Origin: Dictyostelium discoideum
Lineage: Eukaryota
Length of the DNA stretch: 64,000 bases
Reading direction: 5' to 3'
NCBI GenBank assembly: GCA_000004695.1
Contig: CM000151.3
Coordinates: 6,752,001-6,816,000 of the forward strand
This document shows positions 1 to 32,000 of this stretch, piece by piece. The notes under the pieces were generated by a model. The model was not told the DNA's origin and searched no databases. It saw only the letters and a list, made by a program, of their open reading frames with translations. The position numbers were made by a program, and so were the translations under genes. Position 1 is the stretch's first letter; every line of letters starts with the position of its first letter.

Positions 1-7543
<7,543 letters not shown>

Positions 7544-8042
7544 ATGAAATAAAATTAAAATTAAATAAATTTTCTATTATAAAAAAAAAATATATTTTTA
7601 ATGTTTTAACAAATTTTTTCAATTTTATAAAATCACAATCTTTAAATGGACTAAAACCTTTTCAATTATGTTGTTGGGAGCTCATATCACTATTATTTTT
7701 TATTTGATTATTTTTTCAAAAGAATTTTATAATTGTTATAAATAATTTATATTTATAAAAGTCTCTTTATTAAAAATTATTTTTATTATTTTAAATATAT
7801 TAATATATTACTATTATTTAAAATAGGTTAATATTTTACCTAAATAATTATTATTTTTATTATTTTAATCCAGATTTATTTTAAGTTTTTCTGAATGTTA
7901 TGAGAAGTGGTAAAAAGAAAAAAAAATTAAATTTTGTTATTTTAATCATAAGAGATTTTTGGAAAAAAAAAAAAAAACAATGTCCTATTTTTAGTTTCTA
8001 AACACCCCTTTTTTTTTTCAACTTCACACACAATCAGTTAAT

Positions 8043-8079
<37 letters not shown>

Positions 8080-8196
8080 TAATAAAAAAAAAAATTAATT
8101 AAAAATTTTAATTATTAATTAATAATAAAAAAATAAATATATATTAATAAACAGTTTTAAAATTGTGTTTATAAATAAAATTTAAATTTTAAAAAA

Positions 8197-9306
8197 ATGA
8201 AAGTAATATTTTTATTAATATTATTAATTTTATTAAAAATTGTTAAAAGTTATGAATGTAATTGTATATTAAAAGAATATTGTAAACCATTAGAAGTTGG
8301 TGAGAGAATAGAATTTATTGGATTTTCATTTAATTCAACAGGAAATTATTTGAATTATGATTATTATTCAGTTACAACTATTGCAATTTCATATCAATCT
8401 AATTACGATATACCAGAAGAATTAGTTTGTAAATCACATGAAAATAGAGTAAGATTAGTTTGGTCTGCAATTATTTCAAATAATCAAATATCAAATGAAA
8501 CCTATAGAAATCAATTTATTGATTCCATTGTTGAGACAATTCAAAAGGAAAATATGGATGGAGTAATATATGAATTAGATAATCCAAATGATTTAACCAT
8601 TGAAAATAGTGATTACTTTACAGAAATAATTAAAAAAACATATCAAAAATTGAAATTGATCAATTGGAATTATCAAATTTCTGCAAAATTTCCATTTTCA
8701 CCAAATATTGATTTTTCGTATAATTACCCTGAAATTTCATATTACAGTGATTATTTAGTTATAATGGATTATAATATTGGTAGTAGAGTTTCAAATGATG
8801 GTAACTATTGTTTAGCAGGCTCAAATTCACCAAATCCTTTGATTGAGCAAGGTGTTCACAATTTCACATCAATGGGTATTCCTGGTGAAAGATTGGTTTT
8901 AACATATCCATGGTTTGGTTTAGATTTTATTTGTTTCAATGGTAATTTATCAAGTGTAGATTGTTTAGTTACTAAAAGTGAAAATGTTAGTTGTAATGAT
9001 ATCAATTCAATTTCAAATCAAATAAGTTATGGTGAAATATTAAAGATTCTAAATGATGATAACATTATAAATGGTGGAATAAATTGGAATTCTCAAAGTA
9101 AATCAGTATTTTTCAATTATTATGATAAACAAGGTATCCTTCACCAAATTCATTTTGATAATCCAAAATCACTCTTTATAAAAGTATTTTTAACAAAAAG
9201 ATTAAAAGCAAAAGGTATTGCTGCTCAAAGCATGGATAATTTGGATTTTAATGATTTAGTAAATTCATATAATATGTTTGATACAATGGCTTATTTTTTC
9301 ATGTAA
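8197..9306 (+). CDS. Secreted GH18-family di-N-acetylchitobiase (CTBS)-like protein
   Basis: N-terminal signal peptide (MKVIFLLILLILLKIVKS) followed by a CxC…C…P cysteine pattern, as in CTBS. GH18-like motifs MDGVIYELDNP (DxxDxDxE region), DYLVIMDYN, LVLTYPWFGLDFICFN, FFNYYD…IHFDNPKSL…RLKAKGIAAQSMD, collinear with human CTBS. Single exon, 369 aa. Confidence 0.7.
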   Translation: MKVIFLLILLILLKIVKSYECNCILKEYCKPLEVGERIEFIGFSFNSTGNYLNYDYYSVTTIAISYQSNYDIPEELVCKSHENRVRLVWSAIISNNQISNETYRNQFIDSIVETIQKENMDGVIYELDNPNDLTIENSDYFTEIIKKTYQKLKLINWNYQISAKFPFSPNIDFSYNYPEISYYSDYLVIMDYNIGSRVSNDGNYCLAGSNSPNPLIEQGVHNFTSMGIPGERLVLTYPWFGLDFICFNGNLSSVDCLVTKSENVSCNDINSISNQISYGEILKILNDDNIINGGINWNSQSKSVFFNYYDKQGILHQIHFDNPKSLFIKVFLTKRLKAKGIAAQSMDNLDFNDLVNSYNMFDTMAYFFM

Positions 9307-9549
9307 AATTTAATAAAATAAAATTAAAATTTTTTTTTTTTTTTTTTCCACATAATATATCGTTGAATAATACATTTAATTGATTATCAATTAAATTTAC
9401 AATTTAATTTATAATGGAATAAAATTTTAATTTTAATTTAATTTTTCCTGATAATTTCTATTTTTTTTTTTTTTTTTTTTTTTCAGACCCACTCTTTTTC
9501 TGAATCATTTTTTTTTTTTTTTCCATCTATACTATTTTTCAAATCAAAA

Positions 9550-10644
9550 ATGGAATTAAAATCATTTACATTTAAAGTTTCAAATGTTAAAAAATCAAAT
9601 ATTGAAATAAAAGATTTAGATATATTTGATATAGTTAATCCAAAAGAAAATGAATTTATTCCACTTGCAGAAAGAAAACAAACACTTAGCTTTAATGATA
9701 AACCTCAAGAAAAAAGGATTGTAAAATCATCATTTACAAAACAATCTAAATATATTGGAATTAATTCATTTATAGTATCTGCAATAAAAGCATATTCACA
9801 TCATCATCACTTAGTGATAAGAGTTGATGATATATGGATGGCAATATTAAATCAATTTTCAATTTATGTTAATTCAAATGCAGAGATATTAAGAGAAAAG
9901 TTTGTTGATTTCAATGGAAAGAAAACATTGACAGTGACTAGTAATGTTCCAATTTTAAGTGCACCCCTTGATCAATTAACAATTCAAATGGCTGAAAATA
10001 TAAAATCAAATATTATTGATCCATCCATTAGAGATTTGATTATTGGTGATTTTAGTACAACTACAGAAAATGATCGAGTTGTATATTCTGCATCATTAAT
10101 GTCAACTTTTAAAAGTTATTTTGATTATAGGTATATGACATTTTGTGGTTTACCAAGTGTTACATTGCAAGGATCAACTGAAGATTGGTTAAATTTAAAA
10201 CAAAGAATTGAAAGATTAATTGATTTTGAAATTGATAGTAGTAGTAAGACAGGTGAAATGAAAGAATGGGTTAGTATGTTACATCCAATAATAGATCAAT
10301 TCATTTCCACTTCAATGGGTAAACCAAATATTGAATGGTGGAATCAGATCGCTGATAAAAAACAATCATCTGGTAGTGTAAATTTAACTGGTTGGATCAC
10401 TGTATTTTGTGTATATGATAAAAATGGTAAATGGATTGGTAAAAAAGACACAACAAATTCACAATGGTTAAGAATAAACTTTGATTCCATCCCATTAGGT
10501 TATCTATCAACTCCAATAACTTTAATAGATTTTGATAGACAAGAATATAAATGTGATCTATTATCTGGTCATATGGCAATTAATATTGATTTAAATGATC
10601 AAACAATTTTAAAACCATCATTAGATTGGGTAATTATTAATTAA
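9550..10644 (+). CDS. Hypothetical protein (364 aa, no low-complexity; possibly a conserved DUF-type family)
   Basis: Clean single ORF of normal composition, with AT-rich flanks and poly-T upstream. No catalytic motif recognised. Family assignment is not possible by eye. Confidence 0.55.
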   Translation: MELKSFTFKVSNVKKSNIEIKDLDIFDIVNPKENEFIPLAERKQTLSFNDKPQEKRIVKSSFTKQSKYIGINSFIVSAIKAYSHHHHLVIRVDDIWMAILNQFSIYVNSNAEILREKFVDFNGKKTLTVTSNVPILSAPLDQLTIQMAENIKSNIIDPSIRDLIIGDFSTTTENDRVVYSASLMSTFKSYFDYRYMTFCGLPSVTLQGSTEDWLNLKQRIERLIDFEIDSSSKTGEMKEWVSMLHPIIDQFISTSMGKPNIEWWNQIADKKQSSGSVNLTGWITVFCVYDKNGKWIGKKDTTNSQWLRINFDSIPLGYLSTPITLIDFDRQEYKCDLLSGHMAINIDLNDQTILKPSLDWVIIN

Positions 10645-11232
10645 AAAAAATAAAATAAAATAAAATAAAAATTAAAATAAGTGTTCTTCCACACATTTCT
10701 GCATATTTTTCCATTTAAAAGTTTTTTTTTTTTTTTTTGATACCACAAAAATTGCAAATAAAAAAAAATATTTGGATTTAATCAGCAGTGCACTAAAAAT
10801 AAAACAAATCAAGCAGTTGGGATCCAAAAAAAAAAAAAAAAAAAAAAAAAATTTTTATTTTATTTTTTTTGATTTTTTTTTTTTTTTTCAATTTATTTTT
10901 AAATTTAATATCCTGGCCATATAAAGTTTTTTTTTTTTTTTTTTTCATTCACACACAAACCTTTTTTTTTTTTTTTTTTTTGTTTTTTCAATTATTAAAT
11001 TTATTTATTATAATAATAAAAATAAAATAAATAAAATAAAAAAAGATATATTAAAATTTCATATTTTTTTTTTTATTTTAATTTTTTAAAAAAAAAAAAA
11101 TTTATTCGGTACCACAAACAAAAAAAAAATAAAAATAAAAATAAAAATAACAAAGATAAACACCCACACACACACACAACACACTTTTATAAACATATAG
11201 ATAATTATTGAATTCAATAGTATAAATAAAAA

Positions 11233-13975
<2,743 letters not shown>

Positions 13976-14173
13976 ATTTTAAATAACAATAACCAATAAA
14001 TAAAATAAAAAAAATAAAATAAAATAAAATAAAATAAAATAAAATAAAAATAAATCATATCAAATAAAATAAACATTAAATCATATAAAAAAAAAATAAA
14101 AAATATATAAATAAAAAAATAAAATTAAAACTTTTAAACAAAAAAAAAAAAAAAATATTTGTAAAAATTTTTT

Positions 14174-14240
14174 GGATGGGAAAAAAAAAATATATAAATA
14201 ATAAAAAATGTTTATATATTTTTTTTTTCCCATCCAAAAA
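14174..14240. repeat. Near-perfect inverted repeat (hairpin): ~24-bp stem TTTTTTGGATGGGAAAAAAAAAA / TTTTTTTTTTCCCATCCAAAAAA around a palindromic ~29-nt AT loop
   Basis: Read directly in the sequence. It lies about 200 bp downstream of the ACAP stop codon. Confidence 0.6.
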
Positions 14241-14971
14241 ATATTGAAATTTTTTTTTAATTTTTTTTGTAACTCATTTTATTTTGTTTATTTTTTATTT
14301 GATGTGATTTATTTTGTTTTATTTTAATCCAAAACCTATATTAAATTATAAAAAAAAAAAATTTCCAACTTTTTTGTTCATTCACAAAAACATTCTTGAT
14401 TAAAAAATATTTTATTCTTTTTTTTTGTAAGTCTCTTAGAAAACTCCAATCGAATTTTGCTATTTTAGGGAAAGCTGAGACCATTATCAATAATCTTTTA
14501 TTGATACTTTTCAAATATTTTAAATATTGGATAGGTAATTAGTTTTCTAATATGGTTACTGCTATTCATTTTTAAAATATAACAGAAGTGGTATGCCCTA
14601 GAATGACTTGAAGAATTTATATTTTATTTATAATTTGATTTATATATTTATTTTATTTAACTTTATTAATTTAATTAATTTAATATTAATTTATTTTTTT
14701 AATTTTAATTATATATTTATAATAAAACTAACCAAAGTATCTTCTAATGAAACTAACATTTATTCTATATAAAATGAGTTGACATAATTTTCCAAAAGAG
14801 ATTAATTAAAATAATATACTAATTTGGAAAATATTTTAATTTTATATTAATTAATGAATATCTAATTTAATAATATAAATTTTCTAATAAACTATTAAAA
14901 TAGTTTAGAAATAATTATAAAAAATTATTGTAACGAACGACTACTGCTTTCGTAACAAAAATTTCCATCAA

Positions 14972-15045
14972 GCCTTAGTAGCTCAGTTGGTACGAGCGTG
15001 AGACTGAAGATCTTAAGGTCGCTGGTTCGATCCCGGCCTGAGGCA
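14972..15045 (+). tRNA. tRNA-Phe (anticodon GAA)
   Basis: GCCTTAGTAGCTCAGTTGGTACGAGCGTGAGACTGAAGATCTTAAGGTCGCTGGTTCGATCCCGGCCTGAGGCA. 7-bp acceptor stem (GCCTTAG/CTGAGGC), anticodon loop CTGAAGA, T-arm GGTTCGATCC. Close to canonical eukaryotic tRNA-Phe. Confidence 0.92.
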
Positions 15046-15148
15046 ATTTTTATGATTTTCTATTAAATTTGTTGAATTGGATAGCGCCTTCCAATAAACC
15101 CTTACATCCCATCCACCCCTAAGACACCTGTCAATAAAGAAAAAAAAA

Positions 15149-16698
15149 CCGCACCGCGATCAAGAGGATACAAGATACACGTGAAAAGTAATTCATCCTT
15201 TTCTATCCTTAATCTCGGTCAATTTTAACCAATCTTTCAAAAAAAATCACCAATCCACCACGATCTACAGATCTAACTTACCAAATCGCCGATTCAAAGG
15301 AATCCCATCGAGATGAATTCCTACGCAGACGCGGCTAAAATGGCCAACCCCTCCACCCATATGGACGAGGCATCAGAGAACTTCATTAAGGAATTCTCCA
15401 CAAAAACAGCAGAGATAAAGGAGACCTACCCCAAATTATCAATAGGCCTCAAAGACATCTCCAAATACTGCGAGACCATATTGAACATGACTGCTCTCTC
15501 AACCTACGAGAAAAACAACGGATTCTACCCAATTACACTCGAATTCCCCAAAATGGATCTCATGGGGTTAGAAGAAATGAGAAAAACACTCTCAAACTAC
15601 GATATCCCAATCGACAAGATATACATAGGCAAAGGAACTAGAAAAACGATCCACCTGATGATTAAAAACGAACAATCTCTCCTAAATATCATTAGAGATA
15701 GAAGCAAATTGGGAACCTTCATCACCTCCAGTAGAGACTACCACGTCCTCACAGGAAGAGTAAGAATTCCAAGAGAAAAGGCAGGAATAGTGGACGCCCT
15801 CATCAAAACTGCCTTTGCAGAAGAAATACCCTATGCAATATACCATACTATATACTCCACCGACCACCTCCTAGTATTCGGTCTAATAGAATGCAAAATA
15901 GGCGATCAAATGAAATCTGGCCAACACAATACAGAAATCGCCAACTTTACCATCAGAACGGCCACCAAAACCTACTCCTCACAAAAGAAAAATAAGAAAG
16001 TAGAGTCAAACAACACGGAAGAACCATTAGAAGATGAGATGACAGATGATCCTCCCAACATCCAAAACAGGATAGCAATCAAATCCTCTCAACCAAAACC
16101 ACAACAACAAACATACAACCCAGCAAACAATAAGTCTGATAAACAATCAACCCAAGAGAAAAAAGCCCAATCAAAAAAGTCCTCTCAACCTCTTCCCCCC
16201 AAAAACCAAGCAGAATCTCAATCTGTCAAACCCACCACAACCACTACCACAACATCCAACGCCATCCAAAAAGACAATGCCAACAAAACGAGCACTAACA
16301 TCCATTCATCCTCGGAAAACAGAGAGAAGACACCAAACATCCCTCCATCACATAAACGCAAGAACGAGGAAATCCACTCAAACAACGAGGTCACCCAACT
16401 CTCACCAACAATAAACAGAAGCAACCCTTACATCCCATCCACCCCTAAGACACCTGTCAATAAAGAAAGGAAAGGAATCATTGAGAGCTTCATAGAGAGT
16501 ATCTACCCTTCACCATCCAAACCGCAGCTATACGACTCCCAAGAGGAGATCGATATCATCTCATAATGGTAGTAATCAAAATCAACCAATGGAATGTCAG
16601 AGGTTGGGGCACTGACACCTCCTTCAAAAACAAAACAGACTTTATCAAATCCCAATCCCCCCCAAACTCATTGGCAATAACCATAGTCAATGAACTCA
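15149..16698 (+). mobile_element. tRNA-gene-associated non-LTR retrotransposon (TRE-like), 5' part: 5' UTR, ORF1, and the first 44 codons of ORF2 (APE-type endonuclease) truncated by an assembly gap
   Basis: Starts about 100 bp downstream of tRNA-Phe, at CCGCACCGCGATCAAGAGG preceded by an A-run. ORF1 spans 15313..16566. ORF2 starts at 16566 by ATAATGG overlap (MVVIKINQWNVRGWGTDTSFKNKTDFIKSQSPP…), the characteristic start of an L1-type AP endonuclease. Insertion downstream of a tRNA suggests a TRE3-type element. The subfamily cannot be named from the sequence alone. Confidence 0.7.
15313..16566 (+). CDS. Retrotransposon ORF1 protein (417 aa)
   Basis: Intact ORF. It has normal (non-AT-rich) codon composition, unlike host genes. 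A diverged, frameshifted inverted copy lies at 17215..18224 (minus). Confidence 0.7.
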   Translation: MNSYADAAKMANPSTHMDEASENFIKEFSTKTAEIKETYPKLSIGLKDISKYCETILNMTALSTYEKNNGFYPITLEFPKMDLMGLEEMRKTLSNYDIPIDKIYIGKGTRKTIHLMIKNEQSLLNIIRDRSKLGTFITSSRDYHVLTGRVRIPREKAGIVDALIKTAFAEEIPYAIYHTIYSTDHLLVFGLIECKIGDQMKSGQHNTEIANFTIRTATKTYSSQKKNKKVESNNTEEPLEDEMTDDPPNIQNRIAIKSSQPKPQQQTYNPANNKSDKQSTQEKKAQSKKSSQPLPPKNQAESQSVKPTTTTTTTSNAIQKDNANKTSTNIHSSSENREKTPNIPPSHKRKNEEIHSNNEVTQLSPTINRSNPYIPSTPKTPVNKERKGIIESFIESIYPSPSKPQLYDSQEEIDIIS

Positions 16699-16835
16699 NN
16701 NNNNNNNNNNNNNNNNNNNNNNNNNNNNNNNNNNNNNNNNNNNNNNNNNNNNNNNNNNNNNNNNNNNNNNNNNNNNNNNNNNNNNNNNNNNNNNNNNNCG
16801 CCAGTGTGATGGATATCTGCAGAATTCGCCCTTGC
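16699..16835. other. Assembly gap (100 N) immediately followed by 37 bp of pCR-TOPO cloning-vector polylinker (CGCCAGTGTGATGGATATCTGCAGAATTCGCCCTT)
   Basis: The N-run is 16699..16798. The string at 16799..16835 is the reverse complement of the pCR2.1/pCR4-TOPO right-flank polylinker AAGGGCGAATTCTGCAGATATCCATCACACTGGCG, which abuts TOPO-cloned inserts. Confidence 0.85.
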
Positions 16836-18418
16836 TGGTAGTGCGTGGGCGTTGAGTTCATTGACTATGGTTATTGCCAATGAGTTTGGGGGGGATTGGG
16901 ATTTGATAAAGTCTGTTTTGTTTTTGAAGGAGGTGTCAGTGCCCCAACCTCTGACATTCCATTGGTTGATTTTGATTACTACCATTATGAGATGATATCG
17001 ATCTCCTCTTGGGAGTCGTATAGCTGCGGTTTGGATGGTGAAGGGTAGATACTCTCTATGAAGCTCTCAATGATTCCTTTCCTTTCTTTATTGACAGGTG
17101 TCTTAGGGGTGGATGGGATGTAAGGGTTGCTTCTGTTTATTGTTGGTGAGAGTTGGTTGACTTCATTGTTTGAGTGGATTTCCTCGTTCTTGCGTTTATG
17201 TGATGGAGGGATGTTTAGTGTCTTCTCTCTGTTTTCCGAGGATGAATGGATGTTAGTGCTCGTTTTGTTGGCATTGTCTTTTTGGATGGCGTTGGATGTT
17301 GTGGTAGTGGTTGTGGTGGGTTTGACAGATTGAGATTCTGCTGGGTTTTTGGGGGAAGAGGTAGAGATGACTTTTTTGCTTGGGCTTTTTTCTCTTGGGT
17401 TGATTGTTTATCAGACTGATTGTTTGCTGGGTTGTTTGTTTGTTGTTGTGGTTTTGGTTGAGAGGATTTGATTGCTATCCTGTTTTGGGTGTAAGGAGGA
17501 TCTGTCATCTCATCTTCTAATGGTTCCTCCGTGTTGTTTGTCTCTACTTTCTTGTTTTTCTTTTGTGAGGAGTAGGTTTTGGTGGCCGTTCTGATGGTAA
17601 AGTTTGCGATTTCTGTAATGTGTTGGCCAGATTTCATTTGATCGCCAATTTTGCATTCTATTAGACCGAATACTATGAGGTGGTCGGTGGAGTATATAGT
17701 ATTGTATATTGCATAGGGTATTTCTTCTGCAAAGGCAGTTTTGATGAGGGCGTCCACTATTCCTGCCTTTTCTCTGGGAATTCTTACTCTTCCTGTGAGG
17801 ACGTGGAAGTCTCTACTGGAGGTGATGAAGGTTCCCAATTTGCTTCTATCTCTAATGATATTTATGAGAGATTGTTCGTTTTTGATCATCAGGTGGATCG
17901 TTTTTCTAGTTCCTTTGCCTATGTATATCTTGTCGATTGGGATATCGTAGTTTGAGAGTGTTTTTCTCATTTCTTCTAACCCCTTGAGATCCATTTTGGG
18001 GAATTCGAGTGTAATTGGGTAGAATCCGTTGTTCTTCTCGTAGCAGTCATGTTCAATATGGTCTCGCAGTATTTGGAGATGTCTTTGAGGCCTATTGATA
18101 GTTTGGGGTAGGTCTCCTTTATCTCTGCTGTTTTTGTGGAGAATTCTTTAATGAAGTTCTCCGATGCCTCGTCCATATGGGTGGAGGGGTTGGCCATTTT
18201 AGCCGCGTCTGCGTAGGAATTCATCTCGATGGGATTCCTTTGAATCGGCGATTTGGTAAGTTAGATCTGTAGATCGTGGTGGATTGGTGATTTTTTTTGA
18301 AAGATTGGTTAAAATTGACCGAGATTAAGGATAGAAAAGGATGAATTACTTTTCACGTGTATCTTGTATCCTCTTGATCGCGGTACGGTTTTTGTTTTTT
18401 TTTTTTTTTTTACCTAAA
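16836..18418 (-). mobile_element. Inverted, diverged (frameshifted) copy of the same TRE-like element 5' part (ORF2 start, ORF1 remnants, 5' UTR)
   Basis: Reverse complement of 15149..16698 at roughly 95-97% identity (for example CATCAGAG versus CATCGGAG). ORF1 is broken into track ORFs 17976..18224 and 17215..17994. Both arms stop at the same element position at the gap. Confidence 0.7.
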
Positions 18419-18442
18419 AGTGGTGTAGGAGCAATTACATAG

Positions 18443-18510
18443 TTGAAAAAAGGAATTGAAAAAAGGGATTGAAAAAAGGAATTGAAAAAAGGAATTGAAA
18501 AAAGGAATTT
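18443..18510. repeat. Tandem array of a 13-bp unit GGAATTGAAAAAA (~5-6 copies)
   Basis: Read directly in the sequence. It is flanked by T(n)ACCT(A/G)… motifs. Confidence 0.9.
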
Positions 18511-18627
18511 TTTTTTTTTTTTTTTTTTACCTGTGATCAGACCTTCAAGGAATGTCCTTGTGTCTTTTCGGCGGTGTTTGTTAAACGATTTTATTTTTAT
18601 TATTCAATTGTATTAAATTTTTTAAAC

Positions 18628-18636
<9 letters not shown>

Positions 18637-18663
<27 letters not shown>

Positions 18664-19250
18664 ACTACTACTTAAATTGGAAGAGGGTTCGGAACTACTG
18701 GGGTTTGCCAGGCTTTGTTGAATTTGTATTTGTGAAGATCTTGATTGGTGTTTTTTAGTATTGCTTCGTCGTGTTTGATTTTCTATAGTGTGATGAATTT
18801 TTCAGTTTCGATGAGATTTAGTAATTCTGTTTCTATGACCTTTTGCTCGAATTTTGGCTCTGGTTTGCTTTCATCAGTGTTGAACAATTTTTGACAGATT
18901 ATCTTCCATAATTGGTGTGCTATTATTCCTATGAGATTGGGGAAGATTCTCTCAGTTCTGTTATATTTTGATATGTCTAAGGTATCCATTGACCATCTGT
19001 GGATTTTGATGAATGATAATTTGTTAACTGTTGATATGATGGTTTTTTCAATATCTAGGATATCTCGGCATAGAGTGAAGAGGTGAGAATAAGGGTCTCT
19101 GAATAGGTGGCCACAGATCTTGCATCTGGTGTCTCTTTCGTGGTTGATACCTGGAAGTGATCTTGAGAAGAAGGTGTTTCTACCTTTTTGGTGAGAAATG
19201 CTGTTGATGTTTATGAATACTTTGGGTATTGCTGTGTTGTATCTCACCGA
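18637..19250 (-). mobile_element. 5'-truncated non-LTR retrotransposon 3' fragment: ORF2 C-terminus (CCHC-like zinc knuckle region), 3' UTR and oligo(A) tail
   Basis: Track ORF 18783..19247 (minus) reads …CKICGHLFRDPYSHLFTLCRD…, typical of an ORF2 C-terminus. On the minus strand it is followed by about 120 nt of UTR ending in A(25), seen as the T-run at 18640-18663 on plus. Confidence 0.6.
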
Positions 19251-19540
19251 TTGAAAAAAGGAATTGAAAAAAGGAATTGAAAAAAGGAATTGAAAAAAGG
19301 AATTGAAAAAAGGAATTGAAAAAAGGAATTTTTTTTTTTTTTTTACCTAAAAGCGGTATAAATTGAAAAAAGGAATTGAAAAAAGGAATTGAAAAAAGGA
19401 ATTGAAAAAAGGAATTGAAAAAAGGAATTGAAAAAAGGAATTGAAAAAAGGAATTGAAAAAAGGAATTGAAAAAAGGAATTGAAAAAAGGAATTGAAAAA
19501 AGGAATTGAAAAAAGGAATTGAAAAAAGGAATTGAAAAAA
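19251..19540. repeat. Two tandem arrays of the 13-bp unit GGAATTGAAAAAA (~6 + ~14 copies) separated by T(17)ACCTAAAAGCGGTATAA
   Basis: Read directly in the sequence. The same unit occurs at 18443..18510. The arrays abut the 3' side of tRNA-Pro. Confidence 0.9.
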
Positions 19541-19542
19541 GT

Positions 19543-19613
19543 GGGGAGATCCGAGAATCGAACTCAGGACGCTACCACCCAAAGGTAGCATTATACCACT
19601 TAACTAATCTCCC
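19543..19613 (-). tRNA. tRNA-Pro (anticodon UGG)
   Basis: The minus-strand sequence is GGGAGATTAGTTAAGTGGTATAATGCTACCTTTGGGTGGTAGCGTCCTGAGTTCGATTCTCGGATCTCCCC. Perfect 7-bp acceptor stem. Anticodon stem CTACC/GGTAG with loop TTTGGGT (anticodon TGG, G37). T-arm GAGTTCGATTCTC. Confidence 0.9.
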
Positions 19614-19685
19614 ATTTTGGAATTTTTGAATTTTAATATCTAATATTATTCCTTTAATCTTTTACGATTGTGAATTATAAAAATT

Positions 19686-19759
19686 TGCCTCAGGCCGGGA
19701 TCGAACCAGCGACCTTAAGATCTTCAGTCTCACGCTCGTACCAACTGAGCTACTAAGGC
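19686..19759 (-). tRNA. tRNA-Phe (anticodon GAA), identical to the copy at 14972..15045 but inverted
   Basis: It is the exact reverse complement of the 74-nt tRNA-Phe sequence. Confidence 0.92.
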
Positions 19760-20072
19760 TTGATGAAATTTTTATTTTTTATACTTAATAAGGGTTCGAG
19801 TAATTTTTTTAAAAATATCGAGATTCAAATGAAATTAAAGGATTTCAATAGCATCCTATTTTTTTTTTTTTTACATATAATTTCAACACAAGAGAAAATA
19901 AAAAAAATGGTTCTTTTTCCCCACAATTAAAAAATTTGATGAACATGAATAAAGGATTAGAAGAAAATTAATTTTTTAAAGCCAATTTAAATTTATTAAT
20001 AATGCATTAATAACTTTTTATTTCTCGAACCATTGATTAAGGGTAAAAAAAATTAAAAAATAAAAAAAAGTA

Positions 20073-20132
<60 letters not shown>

Positions 20133-20154
20133 TTATAGTAAAGTTTTTTTTAAA

Positions 20155-25982
<5,828 letters not shown>

Positions 25983-26048
25983 TTATAAATGTATATATGT
26001 ATATATATATATATTATTTTTTTTTTTTTTTTTTTTTTTTATTATTCT

Positions 26049-26087
<39 letters not shown>

Positions 26088-26159
26088 TAAATATGACTTA
26101 AAATTATTTATGTTAAATATTTAAACTGTGGATTATGATAAAAATGATAAAAAAAAAAA

Positions 26160-26194
<35 letters not shown>

Positions 26195-26378
26195 CGAGAC
26201 CAAATTTGTAACCGTGTTCAAAACTATTCTACGTGGTCTTAAGCCTACTTTTTTTTTTTTTTTTTTTTTAATTTCTCTATCCCAAAAATATCAATCTAAT
26301 TTTTTTTTCAGCATTCGATTTGTTTTTATAAAAAGTGGGAGAATAAAAAAAAAAAATAAAAATAAAAACTAAAAATAA

Positions 26379-26412
<34 letters not shown>

Positions 26413-26443
26413 AAAAGAAATTAATTTAAAAATAAAAAAAAAT

Positions 26444-26479
<36 letters not shown>

Positions 26480-26626
26480 AAATTTTTAGAAAAGTTTCCA
26501 AACCAACCCAAATTATAAGAGATTGAACAAATATAATAAAAAAAAAAAACAAATAAAAAAAAAAAAGATTATAAACTTTTTTTTTTTTTATTTTTTTTTT
26601 TTTTATAATTTAAAATATTTGGATGA
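25983..26626. promoter_or_regulatory. Divergent intergenic region between the RCC1-kinase-HECT gene (minus) and ercc8 (plus), dominated by A/T homopolymers: putative bidirectional promoter
   Basis: Position only. No specific motif was identified. Confidence 0.3.
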
Positions 26627-28280
26627 ATGAATAAATTTCTACTGAAAAGAGAACTTGGTATATGTAATGAAAGAAGAGAAATAATTGATGAAATTAAAAG
26701 AAGTATAAGACATCTCGATTTATCAGTATATAAACAAATTATAAACTATAATAAAGGTCCTATCAATCATTTAGATATTGATGTTGCTGAAAATAGATAG
26801 TAATGTATAATAATATATTTAATATTAAAATTTTAAATTTATTTTAAAAATAAAATTTTTCTAACTATTTTCTTTTTTTTTTTTTTTTCTCTCTGTCATA
26901 TATATATATAGTTTATTATCTGTTAGTGGTGATGGAATAATACAAATTTATGATTTATTTGAAAATTTATTAAATAATAAAAAAAATAATGAAATTAAAA
27001 CAGAATTTCAACCAATATTAAAAATAAATAGAAAAAGTAATAATAATAATAATAATAATAATAGTAATAGTGAAGGTATTTTATTAAAAGGTATATCAAG
27101 TGTTCAATGGTACCCAATTGATACAGGAATATTTTTTATTGGTGGTGTTAATGGTAATGTTGAAGTATGGGATACTAATCTTGGACAAGTTTCACAAACA
27201 TTTTATCTTGAGAATTGTGTAAATTCAATATCCTACTCTCAAGTTAATTGTACCAATTTATTAATTGCCGCTGCAACAACTGATCCAAAAGTTAGACTAT
27301 GTGATATGCGTACAAACTCTTCCGTTCATTGTTTAACAGGTCATCGTGAAAGTGTACTCTCAATTAAGTGGTCACCTTTCTCTCCAAATTTAATTGCAAC
27401 CGCTTCAAAAGATAAAACAATTAGATTATGGGATATACGTAGAGGTGATACATTTCTATTTGCTTTAGATCAATATAATGGTAGTGGTATTGGTATTGGT
27501 GTTGGTGGTGGTAGTGGTGGTGAAAGTAATGATGATGTTGGTAATGATATTGGTGGTGGTAATAAGAATGATTTAAAGCAATCAAAAAGGTATAGACAAA
27601 AATTACATAAACCTAAATCACTTCAAACCAGTAGTAGTTCAATTATTGAGAAAAGAAATATTGGTGGTGGTGGTGGTGGTATTGGTGGATCAGCTAATTT
27701 AACATTGAAAAAAGAGGTACCAACTGCTCATAATGGTACAATCACATCAATTGCTTGGACACCCGATGGTAATTATTTAGTTAGTACAGGAGCTGATAGT
27801 AAAATTAGATTATGGGATATTCAAAAAGGTGGTGCAAATACAATGATCAATTATCCAAATGCTCACAATGTTCACAAAATACCAAATCAAATTTGTTTAT
27901 CTACCAATGGTCAATATCTATTTCATCCAAATGGTAGAGCGATTCATGTTTATGAAACTGCAACAGGTAATTTAGTACGTCAATTAAAAGGTCATTTTGA
28001 AAAAGTCAATTGTTGTGTTTTTAATCATTGTGATCAAGCTTTAATCTCTGGTTCAAATGATAGATTAACTTTGTATTGGGATAATTCAAATGATGATCAA
28101 ATTGATGATCAACAATTTTTAAATGAAGAAAAACAAAATAATCAAAATAATGATGATGATAATAATAATTTTCAAGTTACTACTAATACAACAACTAAAA
28201 CTTCAACAACAACAACAACATCAACAACAATATCTCCTCCGACAACTTTAGAAGATGTTGATAATTGGAGTGATGATTAG
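26627..28280 (+). CDS. ercc8: Cockayne-syndrome WD-repeat protein CSA / ERCC8 orthologue, 2 exons
   Basis: Exon 1 is 26627..26799 (MNKFLLKRELGICNERREIIDEIKRSIRHLDLSVYKQIINYNKGPINHLDIDVAENR-) with a GTAATG donor. The intron ends …CTCTCTGTCATATATATATATAG. Exon 2 is 26912..28280 and includes track ORF 27306..28280. The product is collinear with human ERCC8. GPINHLDIDVAENRYLLSVSGDGIIQIYDLFEN matches [61 protein letters not shown] matches [84 protein letters not shown] matches [55 protein letters not shown]. Confidence 0.8.
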
Positions 28281-28464
28281 TGAAAAAAAAAAAATTAAAA
28301 AATTAAAAAATTAAATTTATAAAAAAAAAAAAAAAAAGCGGTGTCGAATAATTCAATTTCATTTTTTGAATAAAAAAAAATATCACGACTAAAACAAAAA
28401 AAAAAAATAAATAAAAATAAAAATTAAAATTAAAATTTCGACTTCCATCCATTTTTTTATTTTT

Positions 28465-28502
<38 letters not shown>

Positions 28503-28753
28503 CAATTTTCAAAAAAAAAGTAAACTGAAAATTCCAAATGTTTCAAAAAAATAAAAAAAATAAAAAAAAAATATTTTTTGAAAAAAAAAAAAAAAATTAA
28601 AACAAAAAAGAAAAAGAAAAGGAAAATAAAAAAAAAATTAAAACAAAAATCGATTCTAATTGTTCTATTTTTTTCTTTTCTTTTTTTTCTTTTTTTTTTT
28701 TTTTTTTTTTTCATTAAATGGTATTGTAATAGTACCAAGTTATATTATTACAA

Positions 28754-28786
<33 letters not shown>

Positions 28787-28882
28787 CAAAACAAAAAAAA
28801 AAAAATTAAATAAATTATATACAAAAAAAAATAAAGAAAAAAAAAAAAAAAAGTATTTTCATTTTAATATATAAAAATTAAA

Positions 28883-28954
28883 ATGTCAAATAATAATTAT
28901 AATAAAATACAAAGCCAATCATCAGGCAAGCGGAGATTTTTACAAGAAATACGT

Positions 28955-29001
<47 letters not shown>

Positions 29002-32000
29002 AATTTTGGAATTTACTAATAGTCATAAATTTTAATTAATTTTTATTATTATTTATAGCCAAAGGTGAAGAAGATGAATTATATAGTGAGCATTTTATTG
29101 AGATAGATAAATTAATAAAACAAGAGCAAGAAAAAGAAGAAAATGGTGGATTTTCATTACCAAAATGGCCAGCTAGTAGTACTATAAACAACAATAGTAC
29201 TCAAAATTTATTTAGTAATTTTATGAGTGATAGTAGTAGTAGCATAAATAGTGATATTAATAGTAATTATACAAGAGATAATAATGGAATGTTTATAGTT
29301 AGAACAGATTTAAATACAGATATACCTTCATCACATAAATCAACCATCTATAGTAAACAACAACAATCACCAAGACATCAAGATATAAATAGTAATCATT
29401 ATTCAATGACTTATGATAGTAGTTTACTTAGTGTTAGTGGTAGTAATGCAAGTAGTAATTGTAATACATCAGCTTCATCATCAGTAAATAGTTGTAATAA
29501 TTCAATTGGTAATTTAAGTAAAGTTTTTAATTTAAATTCTTCAACAAAGAGTTTAAATAACAACAACAACAATAATAATAATAATAATAATAATATGGAG
29601 ACAATTTCAGGTTTTAATAATATAATGAAAATTGATAATCTTATAAATCATGATACAAATAATAATAATAATAATAATAATATGATAACATCACCATCAC
29701 TAACTACAAATACAACAACTACTACAACAATGACATCAAATAATAGTACACCAATTAGATCACCATCACCACCAAAAACTCCACAACATCAATCAGTATT
29801 AATATCACCAATGACACCATATGATGTTTATAATTCTTATAAATTTGATAAATTGAAAACAACGCCAACATCACCAACATCACCAACTAAATCAACAAGA
29901 TTTAAGGAACCTCTATTACCAAGATCAAATAATAATTTTAATAATAACAACAACAAGAATAGTACAATGAGTTTATCAGGAATGATGAGTGGAACATTCT
30001 CAACATCACATTTATCAAGTTGGGTTTGGGTTAAAAATAAACATAGTATTGTTATCATTGGTCCAACTGGTATTGGTAAATCATTTTTATTAAATACTTT
30101 ATTACATTCAACTTTTACACCTTCTTTAAATTCAATTAGACCAATATTAGGTAATCATAGATTATCTTTAAAACCACAACATGATACAACTTCAACTTCA
30201 ACAACTTCAACAACAAATACAATTTCAACCGATCATATTATGTCAAATAATGAATACTTTTTATTAGATAAATTAAAAACTAAATTAATGAATATAAGTA
30301 AGAGTCAAATTGATCAAAAGATGATATTGGATCAATCATTTTATCAATCAATAAATTGGGATAAAGAAAGGGATAATGAATTTGAACGTGTTTATACTAC
30401 CAGTCAATATTTAACTAAAAAGATACCTCAAGTTAATGATAGTCATGCTTTTATATTACCACAAGGTAGATTGGGTCCAAATCAACAATTTAAATTCACC
30501 TATGGTGCTATCTGTGAATTAAATGTTGAATTCCTACAAGAGAGTGAAGTTCGTGTCATACTTTGGGAATTACATCAATATTCAGAGGATAAAACCATAC
30601 CAATGAATCCAAATAGATTACAATCATTGCAATGGGTTTACTCATCGGTTGTTGATGGTGCAACTTTTGATTATTCAAATCAAAGTAGTTCAAGTAGTAC
30701 GAGTAGTATCAATAGTGGTACCAGTGGTAGCAATAGAATGGTTAGAGTGGTGGAAGATATTAACTCCTATTGGGATATACCCATTAAAGAGAAATTTAAA
30801 AAGTTATTTGGTAAAAGAATTCAATTTAAAGGCTTGGGTAAAGATCACAATATCGATAGAATTTATGTTCGTGAAAAGGTTAAAGAGGTTTTATCAGTTT
30901 ATGGTTGTATTTTAAATTTATTACATATCAAATTACCTTCAAGTGTCCTATTCAATAAACGTGAAATCACAATGATATCCGATGATTCTAAAAGAGGTAA
31001 CATTTCAAAGTTTACAATCACTCGTATTTTGGATGATGCTGATCAAATTTTATTATCAATTGATTATCGTGGTTTATCTGCTGATCTTGCTGATTTATTA
31101 TTAGCTTCAAAATTCACTCAAAAGTTTTCTGCTGATGATGGTTCTATTCAATTCCTTGAATTAGGTGAACATCGTCAATTTCAATTACAACAACAACTAC
31201 AACAAAAACTTCAACAACAACAAGTTTCATCACCACAACCACAACCACAACAACAACAACAACAGCAACAAGTTCAACAATGTCAAAGTCAACAATCACC
31301 ACAACAATGCCAAAGCCAACAATCACCACAACAATGCCAAAGTCAACAATCACCACAACAATGCCAAAGTCAGCAATCACCTCTACAACAACAACAACAA
31401 CAACAACAATCACCACAACAATTACAATCACCACAACAACTTCCAGATATTCATTCATTCGTTATTAATCAACTTAGAAAATTATTTAAAGATGCAAGAA
31501 ATATTTCAAATATTCATAGAATATTAGATTCTTTTAAAATTATTAAAATTAAAGTAAGTTAAAATATTTTTCAAAAAAATATATATGCATTATAAATTAA
31601 TATTAACTTAATTTTTTTATTATTATTATTATTTTATATAAAGCCTTTATTATTTTCATCAATTCATTTAAATAAATCAGTACCACCAGAGTATAAATTA
31701 AAAGGATATTCAAGTATTAGACAATTGAAAGAGATATCAAATGTACCAGTTTTAATAAGATTAATGCATGTTTCAAATAATTCAACATGGACAACTCAAC
31801 ATAATTTATTGGATAAATTTAAACAAGGTATTGCAAAGAAACCTTCAATTTTAAATCATTTAGTTGAACAACAACAACAACAATACCAACAACAAGATGC
31901 ATTAAATTCAACTGGATCAAAACCAATTCCAACTGATAAAGAATTAAATGATTTACAAGAACAATTAACAAATTCATTTAAAGATACTTTAAACGTTAAT

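Follow-up and report, generated by a model that had tools for sequence, protein, structure and literature searches.

The stretch of Dictyostelium discoideum DNA analysed here, hereafter the window, is 64,000 nt long and contains a single run of N, exactly 100 N at positions 16699-16798. The run lies inside an inverted repeat of retroelement sequence and is followed, on its right side, by a few dozen nucleotides that do not belong to the repeat. The question raised by this locus is therefore what the N run and the adjoining letters stand for, and how far the palindrome around them can be taken as genomic sequence.

A cloning-vector remnant adjoins the gap

The N run is immediately followed by the 35-nt string CGCCAGTGTGATGGATATCTGCAGAATTCGCCCTT (16799-16833, plus strand), which matches the reverse complement of AAGGGCGAATTCTGCAGATATCCATCACACTGGCG at 35/35 positions. 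AAGGGCGAATTCTGCAGATATCCATCACACTGGCG is the polylinker sequence that adjoins the cloning site, on its T7 side, in pCR2.1-TOPO, pCRII-TOPO and pCR-Blunt II-TOPO, and the string is the remnant of such a polylinker with CCCTT at its 3' end. This topoisomerase site occupies 16829-16833, and element-homologous sequence begins at the next base. The G+C content of the vector piece is 51% vs 24% for the genome, and its 12-mer AAGGGCGAATTC occurs only once in the whole window, at the vector string itself. An exact vector match of 35 nt cannot occur by chance in 64 kb, and a fortuitous vector resemblance of genuine Dictyostelium sequence was excluded on the basis of the 35/35 identity, the G+C content and the occurrence of the same context in engineered records. 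A previous reading of the window from its letters alone, the sequence-only reading, had recognized a pCR2.1 polylinker in reverse complement at this position, and the match to AAGGGCGAATTCTGCAGATATCCATCACACTGGCG confirms it. Of the span 16799-16835 given there, the start is correct, but the true end is 16833 and the span overshoots by 2 nt.

The sequence-only reading had also named pCR4-TOPO as a source vector, which is probably wrong. The pCR4-TOPO polylinker should diverge after AAGGGCGAATTC, or after GAATTC, and continue with AAGGGCGAATTCGCGGCCGC past the insert; the window reads TGCAGATATCC downstream of GAATTC and does not fit that sequence. A literature search with the pCR4 polylinker string returned nothing usable. 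When the polylinker string of PMC9365391 was combined with the sequence of the T7 primer, the first base of the vector piece was located 34 nt beyond the 3' end of that primer. Such a start is typical of the first readable base of a Sanger read, and we infer that the read was T7-primed.

The orthologous locus in an independent assembly is uninterrupted

The window was compared with contig JBTAPE010000033.1 of the long-read assembly GCA_054883475.1, which was located via the exact ORF1 product and extended by a second look-up. Exact-product look-ups with the flanking ORFs at 12308-13975 and 20155-25293 gave no match, presumably because of introns or other starts. The most likely source of this assembly is the Nanopore/Illumina set of PMC12745789. 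Judged from the near-zero divergence and the species list of the project, the assembled strain is probably AX2-214 and not AX4, so the gap content in the sequenced strain could differ from that described below.

Positions 1-11386 of the retrieved locus correspond to window 5305-16698 (99.88%), and positions 19898-30027 to window 16833-26983 (99.72%). Between both collinear blocks lies approximately 8.5 kb of continuous retroelement sequence (8,511-8,531 nt), which contains neither N nor vector. The unstranded placeholder at 16699-16798 thus stands for about 8.5 kb of real sequence.

This comparison bears on whether a vector fragment was physically integrated into the sequenced strain via transformation. 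The polylinker is indeed physically present in engineered genomes, such as that of E. coli BL21-AI. However, the orthologous locus in the near-identical laboratory-strain assembly is uninterrupted retroelement, and the window holds only 35 nt of vector, with a read-like start beside an N gap and a primer-like 18-mer after it. Moreover, the D. discoideum reference strain is not known to be a transformant. We consider physical integration extremely improbable. The claim of the sequence-only reading that TOPO-vector contamination is present at the gap is borne out by the 35/35 match, the CCCTT end and the absence of the string from the orthologous locus.

The stretch hidden by the gap contains the remaining 3.7 kb of the left element, whose ORF2 is intact and whose poly(A) occupies L001 15066-15087. 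It also contains two parts of the right copy, namely its 3' end, with a poly(T) at 18870-18903, and the N-terminal 271 codons of its ORF2. Beyond the poly(A) of the left element, L001 15088-15320 comprises about 60 nt of other sequence and then a 170-nt duplicate of the element 3' end. This 170-nt fragment, of the same family as the left element, has its own poly(A) and represents another insertion with a severe 5' truncation. A second, different non-LTR element was observed at L001 15517-18903 on the plus strand, wholly inside the reference gap; it consists of an ORF1 at 15517-16392 (291 aa) followed by frameshifted Exo_endo_phos (APE) and RVT_1 fragments, and its 3' side appears to be truncated by the poly(T) end of the right copy.

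Another discrepancy between the assemblies was noticed at window 10673-10853, where 6 substitutions and 1 indel fall within 180 nt of AT-rich intergenic sequence. The rest of the left flank (approximately 11 kb) shows 0 substitutions and one other indel. The cluster is either a low-quality reference patch or a real strain difference.

The arms belong to TRE3-type elements between convergent tRNA genes

The left arm (15133-16698, plus strand) is the authentic 5' part of a full-length non-LTR retrotransposon of the TRE3 type. It contains the 5' UTR and ORF1 (15313-16566) and, from 16566 on, the initial 44 codons of ORF2 before it is truncated by the gap. Over the last 3 kb on this side, zero differences from the independent assembly were found. 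ORF1 encodes 417 aa, and homologs with 86-98% identity are annotated only in Dictyostelium discoideum. ORF2, as present in the full-length copy in the independent assembly, encodes 1234 aa with an RVT_1 domain (E=1e-33), a weak Exo_endo_phos match over residues 8-253 (18.6 bits, below the cut-off) and a CX2C...H...C motif in the vicinity of the C-terminus, and the copy ends in a short 3' UTR and a poly(A). The flanking ORFs carry poly-N and poly-Q tracts typical of the D. discoideum genome.

A tRNA-Phe(GAA) gene was detected by ARAGORN at 14972-15045 on the plus strand, and the left element starts approximately 88 nt downstream of it (at about 15133). TRE3 elements integrate approximately 100 bp downstream of tRNA genes (PMC5633606). 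Both the two-ORF architecture and the tRNA spacing of about 100 bp that characterize TRE3 were found here.

The authentic right arm (17157-18404, minus strand) was delimited by comparison with the independent assembly and represents the 5' part of a TRE3-type copy that is defective, with an internal deletion and a frameshifted ORF1. In this interval all right-copy-specific variants (about 45 substitution/indel sites) are common to the window and the independent assembly, and the arm is contiguous with the unique right flank. The frameshift splits ORF1 of the right copy (window 17215-18224, minus strand) into two ORFs, one of 82 aa and one of 259 aa. In its version from the independent assembly (L001 19130-21059, minus strand), this copy has ATA at the ORF2 start, and an internal deletion of ORF2 follows codon 271.

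The right flank beyond this arm holds a short tandem repeat, a run of poly(T), a zinc-finger TRE fragment and two minus-strand tRNA genes, for tRNA-Pro and tRNA-Phe. The latter are a tRNA-Pro(UGG) gene at 19543-19613 and a second tRNA-Phe(GAA) gene at 19686-19759, again detected by ARAGORN. A distance of 1.1 kb separates the right copy from tRNA-Pro, and a further TRE fragment is located between them; this is the C-terminal zinc-finger fragment of a different TRE (18783-19247, minus strand), which shares 39% identity over 57 aa with the ORF2 C-terminus (E=1e-7). The short tandem repeat, at 18425-18510 just outside the 5' end of the right arm, is composed of GGAATTGAAAAAA-like units, and a repetitive ORF at 19343-19591 (FFQFLFSIPFFNS repeated) overlaps tRNA-Pro. 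Both repeats look like members of the same family in opposite orientation. Two convergent tRNA-Phe(GAA) genes and one tRNA-Pro(UGG) gene were observed to bracket the cluster, with TRE insertions downstream of tRNA genes on each side. The locus can thus be described as a cluster of TREs enclosed by convergent tRNA genes.

The inverted repeat is real and its arms are about 8.5 kb apart

In the window, the arms of the inverted repeat (about 15133-16698 and 16853-18404) are 94-99% complementary with few small indels, and complementarity to the left arm is exact for 304 nt from 16853 outward. In the independent assembly, 9824-11406 pairs with 19898-21470 in inverted orientation at 96.7-96.8%. The inverted repeat is therefore real, with 1.57-kb arms that are approximately 97% identical and lie downstream of convergent tRNA genes. 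The near-adjacency of the arms is not found in the independent assembly, in which they are separated by about 8.5 kb vs 154 nt in the window. The TRE3 5' regions face away from each other, and no near-perfect hairpin-like structure with a 154-nt spacer exists. The sequence-only reading had cast doubt on the exact structure of the repeat. That doubt is unfounded as to the existence of the arms and justified as to their spacing, which is about 8.5 kb, and as to the innermost 240-300 nt of the right arm, which are wrong.

The left arm stops at 16698, and this stop and the first clean base of the right arm, 16853, are a perfect mirror about the primer site considered below. Because of this mirror position, the same primer site may have bounded both contig ends, which suggests that proper clipping was carried out only on the left.

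The 18-mer beside the vector is a diverged version of an ORF2 site

Directly abutting CCCTT, the window reads GCTGGTAGTGCGTGGGCG (16834-16851) and then T16852. No second site for GCTGGTAGTGCGTGGGCG was found in the window even when 3 mismatches were allowed. The interval 16834-16852 (plus strand) is antisense to ORF2 codons 45-51 and is the putative primer-derived start of a cloned insert, GCTGGTAGTGCGTGGGCG(T). Compared with the genuine ORF2 site GCTTGTGTTGCGTCGGCG, GCTGGTAGTGCGTGGGCG agrees at 14/18 positions without gaps in all six sampled copies; with an 8-nt gap allowed, the alignment gives 17/20 instead. GCTGGTGTGCTTGTGTTGCGTCGGCG adjoins ...TTGAGTTCATTG in the copies L002 and L003 as well as in the two copies of the independent assembly, and GCTGGTAGTGCGTGGGCG aligned to the proximal 18 nt of GCTGGTGTGCTTGTGTTGCGTCGGCG again gives 14/18. 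By our own binomial estimate, a match of at least 14/18 at a fixed position has a probability of about 4e-6, so the 18-mer is homologous to the ORF2 site. The sequence-only reading had left the 18 nt as a primer or junk; this homology speaks against junk, and a primer is the better fit.

The divergence is sharply bounded. The sequence flanking the 18-mer matches the element at >99.7%, and of 13 alignment columns that differ along the right arm, 10 lie inside 16834-16852. Since the divergence is confined to the first 18 nt of the TOPO insert, the 18-mer is interpreted as the probable trace of a mismatched PCR primer internal to the element. An origin of the 18-mer from a GenomeWalker adaptor, which ends in GCTGGT, was rejected, as no other part of that adaptor is present and the element site itself is homologous to the 18-mer. 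Simple slippage or deletion was rejected likewise, since an 8-nt deletion still leaves 3 mismatches.

The 18-mer could instead be the true sequence of a diverged element copy, in which case the clone would be a restriction or sheared fragment and not a PCR product. Its clear homology to the ORF2 site fits this, and a literature search with the 18-mer and its reverse complement found no paper, so no published primer matches it; the exact 18-mer was also absent from the retrieved sequences. In that case, however, a divergence of 4/18 (or an 8-nt deletion plus 3 mismatches) would have to be confined to the 18 nt at the TOPO site, while the next 238+ nt are identical to the consensus. Furthermore, GCTGGTAGTGCGTGGGCG would make ORF2 read NAHALPA, where the D. 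discoideum copies have NADATQAHQLFPG, the right copy NADATQAHQLFSG and D. citrinum NADTSLAHQLFPG; NAHALPA was not found among the sampled ORF2 homologs covering the site (D. discoideum, D. citrinum and D. cf. discoideum). TOPO vectors, moreover, accept PCR products. A diverged copy is thus quite improbable, and the mismatched primer is preferred.

The innermost right arm is not authentic

The window right arm, the right copy of the new assembly, both left copies, L002 and L003 were compared column by column. From 18162 down to 17157, the window has every right-copy-specific variant. At 17090, 16983 and 16874, by contrast, the window has the consensus (left-like) base where the independent assembly shows variants private to its right copy; one of these variants destroys the ORF2 ATG. 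Over the 10,131 nt compared on the right side, the window and the independent assembly differ by no substitutions other than these three. All three are located at most 238 nt from the primer, and the probability of such clustering by chance is about (238/10131)^3, i.e. about 1e-5. Because the three substitutions cluster near the primer and all revert to the consensus, the segment 16853-17156 (minus strand), which resembles the consensus or the left copy and has about the length of one Sanger read, is not authentic sequence of the right element. Positions 17090 and 17157 bracket the switch from foreign to authentic right arm, and the source of the innermost 240-300 nt is either another element copy or a chimeric PCR clone.

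In principle, the new assembly could be in error at the discordant bases or could carry changes private to its strain there. More broadly, the clone read might represent a genuine PCR product of the right-copy junction, the three bases being Taq errors, AX2/AX4 differences or errors of the new assembly. From 17157 outward the right arm is perfectly locus-specific, PCR-clone reads do carry polymerase errors, and the comparison strain is probably not AX4, all of which agree with a genuine junction. Nevertheless, all three differences sit on sites of right-copy private variants, with the family consensus in the window each time, and random Taq errors would not lead back to the consensus at three sites out of three; the remaining 9.9 kb are without further substitutions. 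A genuine junction is accordingly unlikely. Still another proposal would be that the inverted TRE3 arms (1.57 kb, 97%, 8.5 kb apart) are unstable in recombination or replication, which, more than their repetitiveness as such, would explain a resistance to cloning and assembly, and that the consensus-like inner arm of AX4 arose by gene conversion between copies. We hold this to be very unlikely, and a foreign inner segment is the reading retained below.

Proposed origin of the junction

It is highly probable that the whole of the junction is an assembly or sequencing artefact, in which a TOPO-cloned PCR product of the repeat was merged at a contig end. The starting point is two TRE3-type copies targeted to tRNA genes and arranged tail-to-tail between convergent tRNA genes in D. 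discoideum reference-type sequence. The Sanger assembly would have been unable to cross this repeat cluster, and two contigs would have been joined by the conventional 100-N spacer. A PCR product made with the element-internal antisense primer GCTGGTAGTGCGTGGGCG(T) would have been TOPO-cloned into a pCR2.1/pCRII-type vector, and a read of the clone from the T7/M13-forward side would have kept 35 nt of polylinker and the primer unclipped. Because of its near-identity to the repeat, the read would then have been merged onto the inner end of the right-hand contig. As a result, 54 nt (16799-16852) are non-genomic, the next 240-300 nt derive from another element copy or a PCR chimera, and about 8.5 kb of real sequence is missing.

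The sequence-only reading had spoken of a gap-closure PCR clone. The PCR-clone artefact is retained, but the gap is left open by the clone, which looks like a repeat-derived read attached to a contig end. The same reading had dismissed as gap artefacts the three listed ORFs containing X residues (16556-16861, minus strand; 16566-16841, plus strand; 16668-16985, minus strand), and rightly so, the coordinates in the ORF list being exactly as it gave them.

The observation is ordinary assembly contamination; it is nothing biologically new and no biological feature. Its value lies in curation, as the reference contains 54 non-genomic nt, about 240-300 nt of wrongly assigned repeat and three spurious ORFs. 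In addition, the 100-N spacer conceals about 8.5 kb including an apparently intact, full-length TRE3 retrotransposon. Studies of retrotransposon copy number, tRNA-gene insertions, palindromes or read mapping at this locus would be misled, and the sequence of the long-read assembly can replace the faulty reference stretch.

Comparison with known systems

The TRE3 elements of D. discoideum (PMC5633606, PMC5006619) have, like the elements in the window, two ORFs, an ORF2 with endonuclease, RT and zinc finger, and a poly(A). In the window, the 5' end lies likewise about 88 nt downstream of a tRNA gene, and the copies are clustered and nested. The elements in the window differ in that the right copy is internally deleted and defective.

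The vector string itself is known from the literature. It has been printed as vector sequence that continues ...GGCCGCTCGAGCATGCATCTAGAGGGCCCAATTCGCCCTATAGTGAGTCGTATTACAATTCACTGGCCGTCGTTTTAC into the T7-promoter and M13(-20) primer sites (PMC9365391), it serves as a vector primer (PMC7295847), and AAGGGCGAATTCTGCAGATATCCATCAC is a vector primer on a pCR-Blunt II-TOPO-derived backbone (PMC11514169). The polylinker was not found in the other Dictyostelium loci retrieved. Searches with the vector piece gave no match in PLSDB plasmids and a phage collection, nor did the exact 35-mer in bacterial and archaeal genome contigs; evidently, these sets are screened or are without cloning vectors. The exact 35-mer is present in 4 of 5426 complete E. 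coli genomes, at engineered or contaminated junctions. Two of the four loci, those of BL21-AI and E. coli 536, were read. In both, an XhoI-NotI polylinker precedes the 35-mer and foreign DNA follows it directly, and CCCTT terminates the vector piece in these two loci and in the window alike.

The araB::tet(B)-T7 RNA polymerase junction of BL21-AI shares with the window the identical 35-mer and a cloned PCR insert directly after it. There, the 35-mer marks the junction of tet(B) with the T7 RNA polymerase gene in the engineered ara cassette and is preceded by CTCGAGCGGC. In BL21-AI, however, the polylinker is physically part of the engineered chromosome, whereas here it exists in the assembly only.

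The RefSeq chromosome of E. coli 536 was seen to carry a 69-nt pCR-TOPO polylinker block, CGAATTGGGCCTCTAGATGCATGCTCGAGCGGCCGCCAGTGTGATGGATATCTGCAGAATTCGCCCTT, in the yaaJ-tal spacer (NC_008253.1, approximately 8005-8073). It resembles the window in the polylinker, in the orientation to the insert and in the CCCTT that abuts genomic sequence. Unlike in the window, 69 nt were kept (CGAATTGGGCCTCTAGATGCATGCTCGAGCGGC plus the 35-mer), from right after the T7 primer site, and no N gap is present. Judged from the locus itself, this block is probably an analogous artefact of a gap-closure clone.

The closest known class is the vector contamination of deposited assemblies that falls within the scope of VecScreen/UniVec, with which the window shares a short exact polylinker at the gap-side end of a contig, left by an unclipped clone read. 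Nothing essential differs between the two; the window adds a mismatched primer and a repeat insert that is not authentic to the locus.
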